Positions 2,605 to 30,094 of a stretch of DNA of 32,000 nucleotides are shown here, one piece after another. Both the position numbers and the translations under genes were made by a program. Source of the stretch: Promethearchaeota archaeon (GTDB lineage: Archaea; Asgardarchaeota; Hermodarchaeia; Hermodarchaeales; Hermodarchaeaceae). The stretch is from assembly GCA_048939595.1 (NCBI GenBank), contig JBHLPI010000014.1, positions 3,169 to 35,168 of the forward strand, in the 5' to 3' direction. The stretch's first letter is position 1; the number at the start of each line of letters is the position of its first letter. The notes under the pieces were generated by a model. That model worked only from the letters and a program-made list of their open reading frames with translations, searched no databases and was not told the origin of the DNA.

Positions 2605-2738
2605 TGGTGGGCCGGCCGCGATTTGAACGCGGGATCACCTGAAAGAGGGTCACCAAATAACTAGCAACCACGCCCCAGGCAGGCATCATACCATTCTAGC
2701 CAAAGGCAGCTGCCGGTCGGGATCTAGACCACCGGCCC
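2605..2738 (-). tRNA. tRNA-Pro (anticodon GGG) with two introns and encoded CCA
   Basis: Minus strand reads GGGCCGG...CCGGCCC-A-CCA, with T-arm CCGCG-UUCAAAU-CGCGG. The gene is 134 nt. Intron 1 is 28 nt in the D-loop (2694-2721): H/H' CUAG/CUAG, bulges AUC and AAU. Intron 2 is 29 nt (2642-2670): H/H' GGGG/CUCU, bulges CGU and UUC, 8-bp inner hairpin. Cutting after the 2nd bulge nucleotide gives the anticodon arm CCUGC-CUGGGGC-GCAGG. Confidence 0.85.
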
Positions 2739-3878: not shown

Positions 3879-4457
3879 CTATGTCTCCTTGGTTTCATTT
3901 AGTGATTTCACAGACAAATCCTCATATATCGGCCCCTTAGGAGTTAACGTACTTTTTTTCAACTTAATCGACTTGACCCGAAATTTACCGAAATCTTTGT
4001 TTTCATTTTGTCGGACGATTTCCATCAGTTGGTCCCGTTTTAAGCTGCTCCGAACTCGTACCACTGTCAAATGAGGTGAATACTTACGTTTCTCAGAGGG
4101 AAAACGATTGGCACGAAGTTCACGGCCAATGGTTTTCTGATGTTGGATAATTTGTTCTGATCCACCAGTGCAACCAATCCAAATCACACGGGGTCGCTGG
4201 GGTCGGAAGCAACCAAGACCTAAAAGCTCCACTTCAAACACGTTTCCTTCGATATTCTGTAAAATTTCTGATAAACCATCGATTCGTGACTCATCGATAT
4301 TTCCTAAAAAATGAAGAGTAAAATGAAGATTTTGAGGTTCTACAAGTTTCAGTTTGGCCCCGCTTGACTGAAGCTCTTGTTGGATTCGATTGATTTGACG
4401 AAGTACATCTGGATCTTCTACTTCAATTGCAATGAAACACCGAATTGCTGCCATCAT
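3879..4457 (-). CDS. thpR: 2H-phosphoesterase: RNA 2',3'-cyclic phosphodiesterase / 2'-5' RNA ligase (LigT/ThpR)
   Basis: Two H-x-T/S-x motifs (HFTLHFLG and HLTVVRV) with the spacing typical of the family; 192 aa. Confidence 0.8.
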   Translation of the reverse strand: MMAAIRCFIAIEVEDPDVLRQINRIQQELQSSGAKLKLVEPQNLHFTLHFLGNIDESRIDGLSEILQNIEGNVFEVELLGLGCFRPQRPRVIWIGCTGGSEQIIQHQKTIGRELRANRFPSEKRKYSPHLTVVRVRSSLKRDQLMEIVRQNENKDFGKFRVKSIKLKKSTLTPKGPIYEDLSVKSLNETKET

Positions 4458-15757: not shown

Positions 15758-17338
15758 TCAATCTTTTGCATTGGGAACTTCTTGATTTAGGATTTTGTAT
15801 ATTTTACTAATTGGGTGAGATAGATTAAATTCATCAAAAACGGCTTCAGCGATTCTGCCATAGGACATCCTTCTTTTTCGTAATTCCTTCATGAAGGTTA
15901 CAACATTGCTAGTAACTGGCTTTTGCTGTGTTTCTCTTCGTTTCATCATGTCTGCAATTTTATCTGCAGCTTCCTGACGTGTAGTAGCAAATAGAAAGAA
16001 TGGAAGTTCTGCAGCAACCTTAAGACTTGATTTTCTTCCAATCCTTACTTCATCTTTTGAATGAGATTGTCTTGATTCAATGTCTAATGTTCTCAGAAGG
16101 GTTTGAACAAAATTAGTACTTGGACCACTGGCATTTCCGATTTCTTGGCTCTTAACGCTTGCCCATCCATCGCCATCGTTGAGACCTTGAAGAAATCTAA
16201 TCCGTACTATTTTCGGTGCTCTAAAGAGCCATTCCATCCTAATTGGATGATGTGTTGTTGTCTCTTTGTGTTGAATTCCAAGACAACTTCTTTTAATCCA
16301 AGTTATTAGGGGTGAGCATTCAGAATTCCAACAATAGAAAGTAGTTCCTCGGCTGTTTCTGTAGTCTTTCCCTCTTTTTGCTCGAATACCTAACTTGCCT
16401 AAGAAATAGCAGGAAGCTTCTCCGACAACCTCGCTCCACGTATATTTCATCGAGAGCTGTAATTTAATATGTGAAGATGTTTGTTTATTCTTAGGCTTAC
16501 TTGCATCGCTAACTAAAACTCCAAGAATATATCCAAATGCTTGCTCTTGGCTAGTGTCTCCAAAACGATTATGCCACCCTCGCATCCTAGAATGTTCAAG
16601 CTCCTTCAGTTGATCCAGTACATCTCTAATTTCTAGCCATTTACTGATAGAGAACGGGACCTGAATGAAACCCTTCGGTTTGTATGTATGCCCGCTTCCC
16701 ATTTTTGTTGGAAGCCATAGACGTTTATTCCTTGGCTTCAAGTGTGGAATATTTGCTGCAAGATGAACCAAAACGGGTCGCATTTGGTTATTGAACCATC
16801 GTGAAATTACTGTGTATCGAGTGTCATATTCCCTTGCAACATCAGCAAATAAACCACCCTCCTTTAACAATTCGAGGGCACTGAAGTATTTAGAAACCTG
16901 ATTAATTCGCTTAGAAAAATGAGTTGAATTAACTAGCTCACTTGTGGGAAAATAGGTAGCAAGTTTATTGAATACATCGGAAAAAGAACAAACATAATTA
17001 TTTGTTTTATTAATTGCATCTATCTTACCCTGACTCTCGGTTTTCGAAACAGCTTGTTCGAATAAATAGTATAGACGCGGTTTTGTACACTTCTTAACGT
17101 AATCAGAAATCAATAATCGAAGTGTTTGAAAATTACCCTCTCTCTCACGCTTCTTACAAACATCTCGTGTCACTCGAGTTAATTCTCCAGCAAAAATCGT
17201 TTTCCTGTCACTAAATTCTTGATATAAAGCAAGATGTAACTTCGCATCAGAGAGGAGCTTACGAAAATTAGGATTTCTTTTCAGACCTGGAAAGTCATTA
17301 TCGATAATTGAATGAATCTGAATATCGCTAGTTATCAA
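15758..17338 (-). CDS. Free-standing double-motif LAGLIDADG homing-endonuclease-like protein with N- and C-terminal HTH-like regions
   Basis: Two LAGLIDADG motifs retain the acidic residue: FGYILGVLVSDAS and FLQGLNDGDGWAS. An N-terminal extension of about 260 aa contains an HTH-like segment (ADVAREYDTRYTVISRWF), and the C-terminus has an HTH-like tail (MSYGRIAEAVF). AT-rich flanks. Confidence 0.7.
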   Translation of the reverse strand: MITSDIQIHSIIDNDFPGLKRNPNFRKLLSDAKLHLALYQEFSDRKTIFAGELTRVTRDVCKKREREGNFQTLRLLISDYVKKCTKPRLYYLFEQAVSKTESQGKIDAINKTNNYVCSFSDVFNKLATYFPTSELVNSTHFSKRINQVSKYFSALELLKEGGLFADVAREYDTRYTVISRWFNNQMRPVLVHLAANIPHLKPRNKRLWLPTKMGSGHTYKPKGFIQVPFSISKWLEIRDVLDQLKELEHSRMRGWHNRFGDTSQEQAFGYILGVLVSDASKPKNKQTSSHIKLQLSMKYTWSEVVGEASCYFLGKLGIRAKRGKDYRNSRGTTFYCWNSECSPLITWIKRSCLGIQHKETTTHHPIRMEWLFRAPKIVRIRFLQGLNDGDGWASVKSQEIGNASGPSTNFVQTLLRTLDIESRQSHSKDEVRIGRKSSLKVAAELPFFLFATTRQEAADKIADMMKRRETQQKPVTSNVVTFMKELRKRRMSYGRIAEAVFDEFNLSHPISKIYKILNQEVPNAKD

Positions 17339-17572: not shown

Positions 17573-17926
17573 GCGGACGGGAGCCCCGACGGTTGTCAAC
17601 CCTCACTGATGCCGTACTCACAGCCAGGTCTCAGACCCGGATCTCGGAAGCATCTACAGTACAGGTTTACGCTGCTCCCTCCCGGGTCTCGCTGGGTTCA
17701 CCTGATAAAGACGATTCAGCCCTTCCTACGAAAAGCCTACCGCCACCAGCGATCCTCCGAGGCGGATCGTCACAGCCTTGAACAGCGAGTCGTACTCTAG
17801 GTCAGAAAGCCTAACGTTGGCATTCAGCCCGCCGTATAGAGCATCTGCGGTACAGGGGAGCTTTGGCCAGCCCGTAGCGGCGCTGCGGGGCTTCTAGCCC
17901 CCCGCCTAGGCTCACCGTCCATCCAG
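17573..17926 (-). ncRNA. Signal recognition particle RNA (archaeal 7S RNA)
   Basis: Minus strand starts GGACGGUGAGCCUAGGCGGGGGGCUAGAAGCCCCGC (Alu-domain-like 5' end). It contains the helix-8-like core CAGGUGAACCCAGCGAGACCCGGGAGGGAGCAGCG. The 3' end GGCUCCCGUCC pairs with the 5' end. GC-rich island in AT-rich surroundings. Ends are accurate to about 10 nt. Confidence 0.85.
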
Positions 17927-20523: not shown

Positions 20524-20631
20524 TGGTGGGCCGAGAGGGACTCGAACCCCCGACCATCGCGGTGTAAGCGCGATATCATAGCCTTCTAGTCTACAGGAGT
20601 CCCGTCCTGTAGATAGCTAGACCATCGGCCC
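20524..20631 (-). tRNA. tRNA-Val (anticodon UAC) with a 31-nt D-loop intron, encoded CCA
   Basis: Acceptor GGGCCGA/UCGGCCC-A-CCA; anticodon arm UCGCG-CUUACAC-CGCGA; T-arm GGGGG-UUCGAGU-CCCUC (5 bp, one G-U pair). Intron 20584-20614: H/H' CUAG/CUAG, bulges CUA and AAG, 9-bp inner hairpin. The mature D-loop reads AGCUGGCUAU. Confidence 0.9.
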
Positions 20632-21837: not shown

Positions 21838-21880
21838 GGAAATTCCTCTTCTTCTGTCTAAGGAATACCAACAAAACAAC

Positions 21881-22405
21881 TTATTGCGATGTTGGTTTCT
21901 TTCGTTTTATTTGAACCACATCACCTAAGGTTGCAGAGCTCGGTGAAGGCATAGGAGAAAGATCAACTGACTCTGCCTCCTCTAGTAGTGTGACTTTGTA
22001 CAACCGTTCTAATTTTCGTGCCAGTGAAATTGTTGGAGTCATTTTGCCACTTTCGACTTTTGTTATCAGTGACGTCCGCTCATGTAGTTGGTTAGCCACA
22101 TCTCGTTGTGACCACCCTTTTTGTTCTCGGGCTTTCCGAATTATTTTGGTAAAATTCTCGACTGGCACTAATTCGCGCTGTTGGAGTCGAGAACGGGAAC
22201 CTGTATGCCTGATTGTTGATGATGGGCGGGAGATGGAAACTGGGCGACTTCTCGGTGGGGTCGATGCCGAATATCCTTGTTTCTTAGTTCGGTGTACAGG
22301 TTGGCCCAACTCAGCACATCGATTACACGCATAAAGGGTTGCTCCTTCGAGAGTAATTTCTCGGGTTGAATGACATTCACGACCACAGATTTCACAGGTT
22401 GGCAT
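21881..22405 (-). CDS. mbf1: Archaeal multiprotein-bridging factor 1 (zinc ribbon + Cro/C1 HTH)
   Basis: N-terminal CEICG...CNRC ribbon and C-terminal HTH GWSQRDVANQLHERTSLITKVESGK. Confidence 0.85.
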   Translation of the reverse strand: MPTCEICGRECHSTREITLEGATLYACNRCAELGQPVHRTKKQGYSASTPPRSRPVSISRPSSTIRHTGSRSRLQQRELVPVENFTKIIRKAREQKGWSQRDVANQLHERTSLITKVESGKMTPTISLARKLERLYKVTLLEEAESVDLSPMPSPSSATLGDVVQIKRKKPTSQ

Positions 22406-25369: not shown

Positions 25370-25666
25370 TCACGGAGATAATGGGAGTAGTGCATATACT
25401 CCAATGACCCAAATAAGAATCGCTACTACTACTATAAACCATTCAAAGAACAATTTGCGAGTTCGTTCGGGATTTTCATTCATTAATCCTGCCATGCCAA
25501 AGCAAAGTCCACAAATTAGTAAATATGCGAGAAGGAGGATAGCTGCTGCTTGGTCAAAGGGAATATCCAAGACGAGGTTCGTTATGGCAAGGAATACAGC
25601 TCCAAGTAGGAATAAAATACCTACGACTTGTAAAATCCGAATGAGCTTGGAGTTTGTTTCGACCAC
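25370..25666 (-). CDS. Hypothetical small membrane protein (3 TM)
   Basis: 98 aa with three hydrophobic spans, lying between dnaG and atpD on the same strand. No family was recognised. Confidence 0.45.
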   Translation of the reverse strand: MVETNSKLIRILQVVGILFLLGAVFLAITNLVLDIPFDQAAAILLLAYLLICGLCFGMAGLMNENPERTRKLFFEWFIVVVAILIWVIGVYALLPLSP

Positions 25667-25752: not shown

Positions 25753-26897
25753 TTATTGAAGTTCGTCGAAAGTGTGCACACGCATTTTTGCAGGTTTTTT
25801 AACGATATTCCCGATACGAACGCCAATAATTAATTCGATGCCCCGATCTTCAGCGATATCAATCAGGCGTTGTGTCACAACACCATCAAGGATAAGTGCT
25901 TTTGCCTTTTTGAGTTGCTGTAATTCATTTGCGAGTTCGCCGACATGTGTTTCTTTGACCTGTTTAAACTTGTCATCTAATATGACAGCCATCATTGTTT
26001 GTTGAATTTTTTCAGCCGAACTAAGAACAGGGGGTGGGATTCCCAAATCTTTAGGTGCTTCTTCCAGTTTTTCGGCTTTCTTCACTTTGGTTCGTGTACG
26101 GCGGGATTCTTTGAGTTTCTTTGCAGGGGTTCTATGCATCCTTTTCTTTTCCTTAGGCTTCTCCGTTGTTGATTTGGTTTTTCGTTTAGTTTTACCAATC
26201 ACTTGTTGGGCTGGAACCTTATTCCGGAGTGCTTTTGTCACTTCTTTGTGGGTTAGTTCCTCAACTTCTCTCCCTGTGGGGGCTCGTGCGATATAGTCAA
26301 TTTGAATAACTTGGGAGAGTTCTTTTAAAATTAAATCGCCGCCCCGGTCACCATCAAGGAAAGCAGTAACGGTTTTGTCTTTTGCAATATCTGAAATGGA
26401 TTTTGGTATCGATGTTCCTTCAACTGCCACGGCATTCTTGACTCCAGAACGCAAGAGGGCAAGAACATCGGCTCGTCCTTCGACGATGATGATATTTTTC
26501 GATGTTTTTGCATTCGGTCCCGCCGGTAATTTTTCTTTGCCAAGTTTAATAATCTCTGCTGTTCGGGATTCTCGAAGAACCGTATCAGTCATTTCTAGTG
26601 AATCAGGAGATATTTCTCCTTCCCAATCTCGTAATATATCGACGGCTCGATCAATGATCTGTTTTCGTTTCTCTTCTCGGACATCCTCAAGTTTTTCAAG
26701 AGTTATCTTTGCAGCACAGGGACCTACTCTATCGACTGTTTCCACAGCAGCCGCAAGAATTGCTGTTTCTGTTCTATCAAGGCTACAAGGGATGGTAATG
26801 ACACCCTGTGATTTTCCACTTTCCGAATGAAGTTCGACTTTTATTCGACCAATTCGCCCCGATTGTTGTAATTCTCTTAAGTCCAAATCTTCACCGA
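25753..26897 (-). CDS. dnaG: DNA primase DnaG (archaeal Toprim protein), proposed exon 2
   Basis: ...GEDLDLRELQQSGRIGRIKV, Toprim core IIIVEGRADVLAL...FLDGDRGGD, and a lysine-rich linker. The listed ORF begins at an internal TTG (26886); the frame is open back to 26910. Confidence 0.85.
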
Positions 26898-26925
26898 TTA
26901 CCCCTTCACATCAGCGATATGAAGT
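26898..26925 (-). other. Candidate 28-nt bulge-helix-bulge intron within dnaG mRNA
   Basis: GCCU|ACA|9-bp hairpin (26904-26924)|GGGU|AAU. The 4-bp helix is flanked by 3-nt bulges on opposite strands. Removal restores the frame and the GQTEGLLGEDLDLRELQ motif. See finding. Confidence 0.55.
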
Positions 26926-27049
26926 GTAGGCCCTCCGTTTGGCCAAAGAGAGCACCTACCACATCGGGGGTTTCAACTACTCCATCAATTTCGATTTTTC
27001 CACGAATACAATACTTAGTAGTACCAGTTCCTTCTGCATTTGCTCCCAT
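26926..27049 (-). CDS. dnaG: DNA primase DnaG, proposed exon 1 (N-terminal 41 codons + 1 nt)
   Basis: The ATG at 27049 lies 5 nt after AGGTGG. It encodes [41 protein letters not shown], the conserved DnaG N-terminus. Unspliced, this frame stops at 26906-26908. Confidence 0.7.
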
Positions 27050-27186
27050 AATCGCCACCTAGTAAGAGTGATTTTCGATGTTTAGTGTGGGCGTTTGAGT
27101 TTGAATACGCCATTTTTTGCTCAATTTGTTATGATGATTATGAAATATGGTAAGCGTGATGTAACCAACCTCACGAAGAAACGGCA

Positions 27187-27606
27187 TTAAAACTTTGTGC
27201 CTTTCGGAGTTTTGTCAATTTTTTTAAGTCCTTCTATTACTCGTACTCGCCAGCAAAACGCTCTCCGTAACTGATGACGTTCTCTATGCAGGATTGTTAC
27301 TTTACGCCCTTCAAGCTGGTTAATAAGGTGCCGTGTAAGTTGCCCTCCACGTCGGTCAAAATCAAATAGAATTAGTAGACGCTGCGAATTGGCAAGTTCA
27401 TCAGCTAGGCCAACAATATTATGTCCGGCTAGTGAATGTATGGGTCCAGTTAACCCCAGTTCACGTAAAGCTGCTATATCCTTGAGTCCCTCGACTACAA
27501 TTACAACTCCTTCTTGCGAGAGCTCACTTAGCAGCTTTAGTCCTTTTTCAAAGCTCTCGATGAGCCTTTCCTGCTTTGATTGTGTTAATTTTCGTTGAGA
27601 GGGCAT
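27187..27606 (-). CDS. Small Toprim-domain protein (RNase M5-like / COG1658-type)
   Basis: VVIVVEGLKDIAAL (Toprim Glu) and LILFDFDRRGG (DxD); 139 aa. Directly upstream of dnaG on the same strand. Confidence 0.65.
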   Translation of the reverse strand: MPSQRKLTQSKQERLIESFEKGLKLLSELSQEGVVIVVEGLKDIAALRELGLTGPIHSLAGHNIVGLADELANSQRLLILFDFDRRGGQLTRHLINQLEGRKVTILHRERHQLRRAFCWRVRVIEGLKKIDKTPKGTKF

Positions 27607-28850: not shown

Positions 28851-29705
28851 TCACCTTTCAAAGACACGAATGTCTAGCACGAAATGATCATACCGCGGGC
28901 TATAACTCTTGATTGTCCGTGTTTCCAGTAGTTCTACATTACGGTTCATCGACGAAGCGAGCTGTTGCATCTTCAAAAGCAGTTCTCTGCCCGAAGCCTT
29001 TTTGGGGCCAATCTCATGAACATGCATTGTTCCTCCCGCTTGAAGGCATTCTATTCCTTGCTTTAGATAGTTCTCGGTCCCTTGAATTAATCCCATTATC
29101 ACCCGATTAGCTTGACCTTTACAAATAGCGGGTGTAATTTCTCCTGTATCGCCGAAATGGGGAAAGACAATACTAGACACTCTATTTGCTCGTATATTCT
29201 GTTCAAGATAGTTGAATGCATCTGGATTCCATTCGATAGCATGGATGATATTAGGTCTTGCATGTACAGCCATGGGTAGGGATAATTGCCCAATCCCCGC
29301 GAACATATCCACGACATATTCGCCAGAACCTAGTTGGCTCATCCGAAGGCGTTCTGCTTTATTACCAACAGAAAACATCACCTTCATTGGGTCAATATAA
29401 AACACCACACGGTTTTCGCGAAAGACTGTCTCTGTTTTAGGTGAACCCGCAATGAGCTCGACAGCTGGCTGGCGGAAGGGTCCTGTGATTGCGTCAGTTC
29501 GGCGTAAAACAGATTTGATTTTTGTGTCATACTTCAATATGGCTTGTCCAATAAGTTCCTTGAATACTTCTAATTGCGGATGTAGCCAAAGAATCCCTAC
29601 ATGACCGAGAATACGAAGGCGCCGTGGTAAAAGTTCAGGAGCGATCTGATCACCTAACTCGGTTTGAAGGAACTGAAAAAACGTCTTTCGGCGACGGCGG
29701 GGAAT
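28851..29705 (-). CDS. taw2: Taw2 / Trm5-family SAM-dependent tRNA modification enzyme (wyosine pathway aTrm12-like); proposed AUU start
   Basis: VVDMFAGIGQLSLP, AIEWNP, RVIMG, YSPRYDHFVLDIRV. The conserved N-terminal segment ELLPRRLRILGHVGILWLHPQLEVFKELIGQAIL lies upstream of the listed TTG (29537). ATT 29703-29705 sits 6 nt after AGGTGA. Confidence 0.7.
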   Translation of the reverse strand: MPRRRRKTFFQFLQTELGDQIAPELLPRRLRILGHVGILWLHPQLEVFKELIGQAILKYDTKIKSVLRRTDAITGPFRQPAVELIAGSPKTETVFRENRVVFYIDPMKVMFSVGNKAERLRMSQLGSGEYVVDMFAGIGQLSLPMAVHARPNIIHAIEWNPDAFNYLEQNIRANRVSSIVFPHFGDTGEITPAICKGQANRVIMGLIQGTENYLKQGIECLQAGGTMHVHEIGPKKASGRELLLKMQQLASSMNRNVELLETRTIKSYSPRYDHFVLDIRVFER

Positions 29706-29719
29706 TGTACTTCACCTGA

Positions 29720-30030
29720 AGGCAAGTAGTTTGAAGAAGTGGTGGGTCGCGCCTGCTCTGCAGACCGATACACTAACGCCCCGTTATCATCGGTGGGCAA
29801 ACGCCGTAATTCCTCCTACAGGTCCTCTCTTAATATGTCGGGCATGATGAGCGTTTTGCGACCCGGCGTTGAAGTGTGGACATCGTGGGTTGCCCCCACA
29901 GTCACATCTTGACGACACGTCATAGATCATGCAGGAGCCTGTCACATGCCGCATAACCTTCAACGCTGCTCCAGTGTCGCCACAAATTTGCACGAATCCT
30001 CATCAGAGGGATTCCTCAGATTCGTCCTCG
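29720..30030. ncRNA. Unassigned GC-rich, helix-rich intergenic block (candidate structured RNA; strand and family unknown)
   Basis: The intergenic gap is about 390 nt in a compact genome, and its GC content is clearly above the neighbours, as for the SRP RNA, tRNAs and 5S rRNA. Nested perfect helices: 29866-29874/29958-29966 (9 bp), 29764-29769/29789-29794 (6 bp) enclosing 29774-29778/29782-29786 (5 bp), and 29885-29889/29895-29899 (5 bp). Confidence 0.35.
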
Positions 30031-30094
30031 ATAGTGGCAATTATCCTTTCATTGCTAATAACAAAACGGAAACGGCGCCTCATAAAGACTTCCA

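Follow-up and report, generated by a model that had tools for sequence, protein, structure and literature searches.

How could a full-length DnaG protein be produced from a gene whose reading frame breaks off within that protein's most conserved motif? This question is raised by dnaG in a 32,000-nucleotide (nt) stretch of DNA, hereafter the window, from the Promethearchaeota assembly GCA_048939595.1 (contig JBHLPI010000014.1, positions 3,169 to 35,168). An earlier reading, made from the sequence alone, had proposed that an intron with a bulge-helix-bulge (BHB) fold splits this gene. We re-read the sequence and its frames between positions 25500 and 27200 and found the minus-strand gene to be interrupted within the family motif GQTEGLLGEDLDL. 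The frame that opens at an ATG at 27049 (MGAN...) closes at a stop codon at 26908 to 26906 and encodes a 47-amino-acid (aa) peptide; a GTG at 27058 lies in the same frame and falls within the Shine-Dalgarno-like sequence that precedes the ATG. The Toprim open reading frame (ORF; 25753 to 26886, 377 aa from a TTG at 26886) is in a different frame. It is 100% identical to a protein named "DNA primase DnaG" from a Promethearchaeota (Asgard) metagenome-assembled genome (MAG), and its nearest named relatives are from Hermodarchaeota/Hermodarchaeia. The split, its coordinates, and the ATG with its upstream Shine-Dalgarno-like sequence all agree with the earlier reading. Based on the comparisons described below, we consider positions 26898 to 26925 very probably to be an archaeal BHB intron within the dnaG coding sequence.

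Deletion of these 28 nt in silico reproduced the claim that an in-frame DnaG is recovered: the resultant ORF is 1269 nt long and encodes 422 aa, which read ...GQTEGLLGEDLDLRELQ and contain ...FGQTEGLLGEDLDLRELQ... across the junction. Excision joins ...CUA-C to UC-GGU... (that is, ...GGCCUAC to UCGGUGAAG...), so that the predicted junction peptide is ...FGQTEGLLGEDLDLR and the predicted intron would be of phase 1, lying between bases 1 and 2 of the Leu42 codon in the N-terminal region of the protein. Scored against the NCBIfam equivalog profile for archaeal DnaG (NF003108, cut-off 300 bits), the spliced product reached 516.4 bits and matched profile positions 1 to 419 of 419, including the N-terminal domain, compared with 443 bits for the downstream ORF alone, which covers positions 35 to 419 only. 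When 28-nt deletions at different offsets were compared, only the offset given by the BHB cut rule (between nucleotides 2 and 3 of each bulge) yielded the universal LLG; neighbouring offsets gave LIG or LHG.

The RNA of this region folds much as the sequence-only reading had described. Minimum free energy (MFE) folds in 45-nt and 76-nt contexts contained a 4-bp helix (H), a 3-nt 5′ bulge, and a 9-bp hairpin (h′), with a free energy of -14.4 kcal/mol and z = -2.2 (Table 1). The exon-intron borders thus have a 4-bp helix with a 3-nt bulge at either end, each on a different strand, as is characteristic of BHB motifs (PMC6379350), and the 3′ bulge is closed by one G-C pair. The strict hBHBh′ form has helices on both flanks; here h′ has 9 bp but the outer exon-exon helix (h) has 1 bp. 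The dnaG motif is therefore a member of the recognised relaxed HBh′ class rather than of the strict class, and the earlier label of a relaxed HBh′ type is apt. RNAalifold additionally offers a distal 6-bp exon-exon helix that shows no double-sided covariation.

Table 1. Coordinates of the split dnaG gene, its predicted intron, and the intron-containing tRNA genes of the window
Feature	Position	Strand	Description
Shine-Dalgarno-like AGGTGG	27060-27055	-	5 nt 5′ of the exon-1 ATG at 27049; read from the sequence
dnaG exon 1 (predicted)	26926..27049	-	ATG 27049 to C26926; 41 codons plus base 1 of Leu42; encodes MGAN...ALFGQTEGL
dnaG exon 2 (predicted)	25753..26897	-	UC finishes Leu42, then GEDLDLRELQ..., Toprim domain, TAA 25755-25753
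Predicted 28-nt intron ACUUCAUAUCGCUGAUGUGAAGGGGUAA = ACTTCATATCGCTGATGTGAAGGGGTAA	26898..26925	-	Removal restores the 422-aa ORF; homologous inserts in related loci
Central helix H, 5′ strand GCCU	26928..26931	-	Exonic, within codons GGC CUA (Gly40-Leu41); pairs with 26900-26903
5′ bulge ACA	26925..26927	-	Predicted cut C26926/A26925; unpaired in MFE and RNAalifold structures
Inner helix h′, 9-bp hairpin CUUCAUAUC-GCU-GAUGUGAAG	26904..26924	-	Loop GCU; MFE, RNAalifold, covariation
Central helix H, 3′ strand GGGU	26900..26903	-	Intronic; last base U/C opposite an invariant G among relatives
3′ bulge AAU	26897..26899	-	Predicted cut A26898/U26897; outer closure only G26932-C26896
tRNA-Pro(GGG)	2605..2738	-	BHB introns 2694-2721 (28 nt, D-loop) and 2642-2670 (29 nt, after position 39)
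tRNA-Val(UAC)	20524..20631	-	One D-loop BHB intron 20584-20614 (31 nt)

Three tRNA introns in the window served as an in-genome control on which the cut rule was calibrated. Manual excision of these BHB introns by the rule led ARAGORN, run in no-intron mode, to call a clean tRNA-Pro and a clean tRNA-Val, each 77 nt long and with an encoded CCA; tRNA-Pro was recognised only once both of its introns had been excised. Both tRNAs were missed by normal-stringency ARAGORN runs that allowed for introns and by Rfam at its gathering threshold, both of which saw only a tRNA-Ser, and relaxed ARAGORN settings produced mostly noise, with tRNA-Val miscalled as tRNA-Tyr. The three tRNA introns share the layout of the dnaG element, namely a 4-bp H, a 3-nt bulge, a hairpin, H′, and a second 3-nt bulge within 28 to 31 nt, and the same cut, placed after the second bulge nucleotide, restores LLG in dnaG. 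The possibility that this order of parts is the mirror image of a true BHB motif was dismissed based on the layout of the tRNA 37/38 case and on the tRNA controls. All three tRNA introns occupy non-canonical positions (two in the D-loop, one after position 39), and in the D-loop intron of tRNA-Pro, too, there is no real outer helix. It follows that BHB motifs of a relaxed, non-canonical kind must be processed in this organism, which implies endonuclease activity on such motifs. Neither the tRNA splicing endonuclease EndA nor the ligase RtcB is encoded in the window. The dnaG element differs from the tRNA introns in that its host RNA is an mRNA, and there is no sequence similarity between them. 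One strand of its H consists of codons, hence structure and coding constrain the same bases.

To determine how widely the insert is distributed, we compared dnaG loci across archaea, defining the clade around the window by DnaG similarity (62 to 100% identity, mostly labelled Hermodarchaeota) rather than by names. The 25 loci of this Hermodarchaeota-type clade derive from 17 species-representative genomes, two metagenomes, five contigs (four database proteins), and the window, and they comprise 21 distinct sequences. An insert was present at the identical nucleotide in 25 of 25 loci, from independent NCBI, JGI, and ENA assemblies. Inserts of 28 nt occur in 20 loci, whereas two loci have 29 nt and three have 31 nt, and no length is a multiple of three; the alignment that the sequence-only reading had proposed as a check thus places the insert at the same codon in relatives and shows no in-frame insertion. 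In contrast, all 138 other archaeal dnaG loci lack the insert and have only the four codons L-L-G-x at this site. Two frame offsets occur within the clade, 2 mod 3 for the 29-nt inserts (loci L016 and L017) and 1 mod 3 elsewhere. In one further locus (L165), a stop at intron position 9 ends the exon-1 frame ahead of position 13, where the exon-2 frame has its last stop; no single frameshift can therefore connect the two frames. Cutting and joining by the tRNA rule restored both frame and motif in all of the 28-, 29-, and 31-nt variants. We propose from these alignments that the intron was gained at the base of the Hermodarchaeota-type Asgard clade and then retained; no secondary loss was seen in the clade sampled.

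Public annotation reflects the split. Database homologues with 62 to 100% identity (P0001-P0052) cover 78 to 94% of the spliced query and are N-truncated or start in the wrong frame, several of them opening with residues read in the wrong frame through exon 1 and the insert, and gene callers elsewhere predict exon 1 as a separate ORF of 38 to 53 aa. Every public annotation of these dnaG genes that we examined was wrong, being either about 45 residues short or given a wrong-frame start. Homologues at ≤56% identity (Jord-, Loki-, Frey-, Odin-, Thor-, and Baldrarchaeia) are mostly full length. GenBank names do not follow the DnaG clade: two loci with the intron (L010 and L011) carry the labels Odinarchaeota and Thorarchaeota, and one intron-less locus at 49% identity (L045) is labelled Hermodarchaeota.

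Across the 21 sequences, the fold is conserved by compensation. In total, 95% of cells were paired, compared with 33 to 53% when the partners were slid by 1 to 3 columns, and none of 500 column shuffles attained the covariation score. Pairing was complete (100% of cells) in H and in the outer four hairpin pairs, with H alternating between G-U and G-C and between C-G and U-G. Five pairs changed on both sides, four of them in the hairpin (one outer and three inner), as in CUUUAUAUC/GAUAUAAAG in L009 and CUUCAUGA/UCAUGAAG in L015. RNAalifold, which was not given the structure, arrived at an identical H, 3-nt bulge, and hairpin; for every length variant, the MFE fold likewise contained H, the bulge, and h′. 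Loop length and sequence vary freely among relatives; structure and not sequence is conserved, as expected of a BHB intron.

Constraint was also evident at the cut sites and in the flanking codons. The 5′ bulge ACA does not vary among the 21 sequences, even though its first base, A26927, occupies a four-fold degenerate codon position. Likewise, the Leu41 codon CUA and the C that follows it, where the bulge and cut site lie, are invariant in the clade, whereas intron-less lineages encode the same Leu as UUA, CUU, CUC, CUG, or UUG. Over the last 33 codons of exon 1, relatives showed 205 synonymous versus 23 non-synonymous codon differences, and the exon-2 bases from the 3′ splice site to the annotated TTG (UC GGY GAA GAY) varied only synonymously. 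Many relatives (L005, L008, L015-L017, L082, L161, and L163) have TTA or CTG in place of the TTG itself. These patterns show purifying selection on both dnaG exons, and all predictions of a BHB mRNA intron that could be tested in silico held.

Other explanations of the split were weighed against these results. One is that dnaG has become two genes, whose products, an N-terminal peptide of 47 aa and a Toprim protein of ~377 aa initiated on its own, perhaps associate, with the hairpin acting as a terminator or a translational coupling element. Such an arrangement would agree with annotation pipelines, which call the 377-aa "DNA primase DnaG" and leave the 47-aa ORF unannotated, with the presence of the TTG, and with exon 1 being clearly translated. 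However, the TTG is replaced in the many relatives listed above, and the synonymous-only change in the exon-2 frame 5′ of it means that those bases are translated although no start codon belongs to them. The tail of the 47-aa peptide (HFISLM here) is unconserved and variable in length. Two separate genes would also leave unexplained why excision by a tRNA rule recreates the exact family motif and why H pairs between exon and insert bases covary, and we regard this explanation as very unlikely. Still less likely is that EndA cuts the BHB motif but the exons are rarely or never ligated, which would make the element a cleavage-based down-regulator or dnaG a decaying gene. EndA is known to cut non-tRNA substrates with effects on expression, for example in the 5′ untranslated region (UTR) of HVO_1309 (PMC7714728), but both exons are under strong purifying selection in a clade reaching down to 62% protein identity. 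Moreover, no second dnaG copy from these assemblies was found among the best 80 genome matches, and the cut sites are placed such that joining the exons recovers frame and motif whatever the length of the insert.

Translational recoding, either a programmed +1 frameshift or a ribosome hop over the hairpin as in T4 gene 60, would have the insert translated or bypassed. The frames do differ by +1 in the window, just beyond the break lie a stable hairpin and a UGA stop, and other researchers first confused the introns of cbf5 with frameshifting (PMC2738675). Yet no one mechanism can fit both the 29-nt inserts and the 28- and 31-nt inserts; the stops in L165 close the sole possible shift window, and in the window studied here the gap is a single AUG codon. 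We found no slippery motif, and the take-off and landing codons do not match, since CUA would land on GUA or GCA. Read-through would place I or F where all 138 intron-less loci have Leu, the loop bases vary with no codon pattern, and a hypothetical +1-frameshift product scored 498 bits against NF003108, 18 below the spliced product. Thus, neither a constant offset, nor an open shift window, nor a conserved slippery or take-off and landing sequence was found, and recoding ranks as highly improbable, below the two explanations above. Least probable of all, to the point of being negligible, is that the insert is an error of sequencing or assembly, or that it entered dnaG recently in this MAG alone and left a pseudogene. 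The source is indeed a metagenome-assembled genome, but the insert carries its own substitutions and length variants in 25 loci from independently produced assemblies, and the selection pattern also contradicts this explanation.

Several observations nonetheless weigh against a BHB intron in dnaG. The outer helix is the single pair G26932-C26896, the MFE folds prefer a 2x2 internal loop over the 3-nt 3′ bulge (the relaxed side of the motif), and H in the window contains two G-U pairs. A protein search with the spliced N-terminal 121 aa returned no Hermodarchaeota-type protein with a contiguous junction; its matches came only from other lineages, at ≤72% identity, with no intron-less close relative among them. 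Of the endonuclease types able to cut relaxed motifs, (alpha-beta)2 with an L1 loop and epsilon2, the former is presumed here from reports on four other Asgard genomes (PMC5829648). Motifs of this quality are also expected by chance at about 5 per 32 kb: a BHB scan with a hairpin stem of ≥9 bp gave 14 matches in the window versus 5.4 +/- 2.7 in dinucleotide shuffles. Among these 14 matches were the dnaG element and two of the three tRNA introns. Scans with a 4-bp stem gave hundreds of matches, and stricter scans were only ~2- to 3-fold enriched over shuffles. Because the motif is this frequent in shuffles, it was rejected as evidence by itself; the significance of the dnaG element comes from frame restoration and the comparative data, not from the fold.

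We also scanned the window for BHB removals that merge ORFs, which gave 50 candidates, nearly all with 4-bp stems. The most striking of them, at 21870-21901, was rejected because it would fuse two unrelated complete genes (aTrm56 and a helix-turn-helix protein), and those in the TYW2 gene were rejected because tblastn gave one continuous frame. No further coding-sequence intron besides that in dnaG was found in the 32-kb window. A sequence search for dispersed copies of the intron matched only dnaG in the window and in 1.05 Mb of fetched loci.

For the enzymes, the ligation, and splicing in vivo, we infer the following course. The pre-mRNA would fold such that the exonic GCCU of the Gly40-Leu41 codons pairs with the GGGU at the 3′ end of the intron, forming a 4-bp helix flanked on the 5′ side by the ACA bulge and the 9-bp hairpin and on the 3′ side by an open AAU, in the relaxed HBh′ form. 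EndA would cut each bulge between nucleotides 2 and 3, and an RtcB-type ligase would connect the two exon ends. The joined mRNA would then encode the full-length 422-aa DnaG with its family motif, whereas unspliced mRNA would give only the 47-aa peptide.

A separate dnaG intron, which the sequence-only reading had missed, came to light in another Asgard group, a subclade of Jordarchaeales. Three loci failed our test for the dnaG motif, among them L142, whose protein relatives are labelled Jordarchaeales. There, dnaG is split by a 31-nt insert (L142:1606-1636) between GGCCAA and UUGGAGGGG, so that the protein motif is divided as FGQ|LEGLLG. This position, between Gln37 and the next codon, is 10 nt upstream of the Hermodarchaeota-type site. 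The six closest protein clusters (79 to 99% identity; P0121-P0126) are N-truncated; in Jordarchaeum proper (~60% identity), DnaG is full length. An insert of 31, 32, or 34 nt was present in 6 of 6 fetched loci (L142 and L166-L170, at ~1480-1520 in the latter). It folds into an H (GGCC/GGCA, with an outer G.A pair), an AAU bulge, an interrupted 10-bp hairpin, and a second AAU bulge, and the same cut rule brings dnaG back in frame. In L168, H is fully compensated (GGUC/GACC), and one hairpin pair changes from U-A to C-G. Covariation over the six sequences is modest, with observed values reached by 37 to 46 of 500 shuffles. The introns of the two clades share no sequence. Taken together, these comparisons indicate that two independent gains within one 8-codon motif are likely; it is possible instead that one old intron slid by 10 nt.

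Other features of the window were recorded alongside this analysis. Directly upstream of dnaG, a small stand-alone Toprim protein (127 to 139 aa) is encoded on the minus strand at 27187-27606, and it also occurs in L161, L163, and L166-L170, that is, in both Hermodarchaeota-type loci and Jordarchaeales. Downstream synteny in Hermodarchaeota-type loci comprises a small ORF, V-ATPase subunit D, NAC, a PUA protein, and the proteasome ATPase. A minus-strand LigT/2H-phosphoesterase ("2′-5′ RNA ligase") family protein at 3879-4457 belongs to an RNA-end-processing family and is not the RtcB ligase expected for BHB splicing.

At 28851-29699 on the minus strand lies a TRM5/TYW2 methyltransferase gene with a conserved N-terminal region and, by tblastn, a continuous frame back to 29699. 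Its first 54 codons include no ATG, GTG, or TTG, although a strong AGGTGA is followed 6 nt on by ATT. Relatives mostly have an in-frame GTG within GGTGA, which in the window and in L001 is shifted by 1 nt; the start codon may therefore be non-canonical, or a local indel may be present. The non-coding block 5′ of this gene (29738-30094, minus strand) is strongly conserved in nearly all Hermodarchaeota-type loci that reach it. It contains a weak Rfam match to an H/ACA small RNA at 29831-30094 (HgcG/Pab40, 16.7 bits, E = 0.017) and, in its 3′ part (~29885-29738), tRNA-like ends (GGGTCGC...GCGACCC-A-CCA). The block is probably one or two structured RNAs unrecognised by the tools used. Elsewhere, a 526-aa minus-strand ORF (15758-17338) adjoins the signal recognition particle RNA gene (17578-17917). 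Its only Pfam match is a weak one to LAGLIDADG_3 (homing-endonuclease-like) at residues 380-427, and it may encode a free-standing or intein-derived endonuclease.

The bearing of these results on cellular function depends on what DnaG does. The earlier reading had called dnaG a primase gene, which is also its annotation name; in Sulfolobus, however, the protein belongs to the exosome, as an RNA-binding subunit (PMC5570065), so that the consequence of an intron more likely concerns RNA metabolism than replication. A protein of RNA metabolism would thereby become dependent on EndA and RtcB. Tentatively, and with more doubt than confidence, we suggest a wider reading in which protein-coding BHB introns are recurrent in Asgard archaea, the bases encoding GQTEGLLG have been invaded at least twice independently, and DnaG obligatorily needs the tRNA splicing endonuclease and ligase in both clades. 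If this were true, (i) DnaG splicing may be a checkpoint that couples RNA decay and tailing to RNA-processing capacity; (ii) many "truncated" or "frameshifted" Asgard genes would be unrecognised intron-containing genes; and (iii) enzyme-catalysed mRNA splicing with frame restoration would already be routine in archaeal relatives of eukaryotes, of which the Asgard archaea are the closest known.

The nearest known system is cbf5 of Desulfurococcales and Sulfolobales, whose BHB introns (Watanabe 2002, Yoshinari 2006, Yokobori 2009) are 16 to 44 nt long, are of phase 1, and lie within the codon for the catalytic Asp; most are relaxed, and a hetero-oligomeric EndA cuts them between bulge nucleotides 2 and 3 (PMC2738675). 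A 2020 study named cbf5 as the only additional BHB intron reported and added the 5′-UTR case HVO_1309 (PMC7714728), and in the literature searched cbf5 was the only confirmed coding-sequence case, in line with the earlier statement that protein-coding BHB introns are established mainly for cbf5. No dnaG intron or Asgard coding-sequence BHB intron was reported in the literature searched, of which coverage was incomplete, so that "unreported" is provisional. The two cases have in common a short, relaxed, phase 1 coding-sequence intron in the most conserved motif of the protein, the same cut, restriction to a clade, and mis-annotation by gene callers; the broad-specificity hetero-oligomeric EndA of cbf5 hosts may be a further likeness. 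They differ in that cbf5 encodes a pseudouridine synthase of Crenarchaeota, whereas the dnaG case is from Hermodarchaeota-type Asgard archaea, and in that some cbf5 introns are multiples of three, whereas the dnaG introns never are. Splicing of cbf5 is proven by complementary DNA and in vitro cleavage; that of dnaG is predicted from the genomic comparisons. These comparisons support dnaG as a case of cbf5-type mRNA BHB intron in a new gene and in Asgard archaea. A second gene would thus be added to cbf5 in a different kingdom-level group of archaea, together with a further intron in the same motif in another Asgard class, taking tRNA-type mRNA splicing beyond a crenarchaeal curiosity. The combination of a split conserved motif, an insert that is not a multiple of three, a BHB fold, and a restored frame offers a recipe for finding more.

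Comparison with other systems places the element among structure-defined introns processed by protein enzymes. Asgard tRNA BHB introns are non-canonical and have the same architecture as the dnaG element (PMC11291895, PMC5829648); in Atabeyarchaeia and Freyarchaeia, introns occur in 92 to 95% of tRNA genes, often at non-canonical positions (PMC11291895). HVO_1309 of Haloferax volcanii is, as proposed for dnaG, an mRNA substrate of the archaeal splicing endonuclease that loses a small piece (46 nt). Its intron, in contrast, lies in the untranslated leader, so that the protein is independent of exact ligation, and it has a canonical motif, a homodimeric EndA, and experimental validation (PMC7714728). 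The splicing of HAC1/XBP1 by IRE1 and tRNA ligase/RTCB (PMC13149111) resembles the dnaG model in being spliceosome-independent and carried out by protein enzymes on a short structure-defined intron with a change of frame, and it differs in its endonuclease (IRE1), in its stem-loop motif, and in being a regulated stress switch. In metazoa, the HAC1/XBP1 exons are sealed by RTCB, a homologue of the archaeal tRNA ligase RtcB (PMC12135372), and dnaG would thus provide a testable archaeal analogue of this type of splicing.

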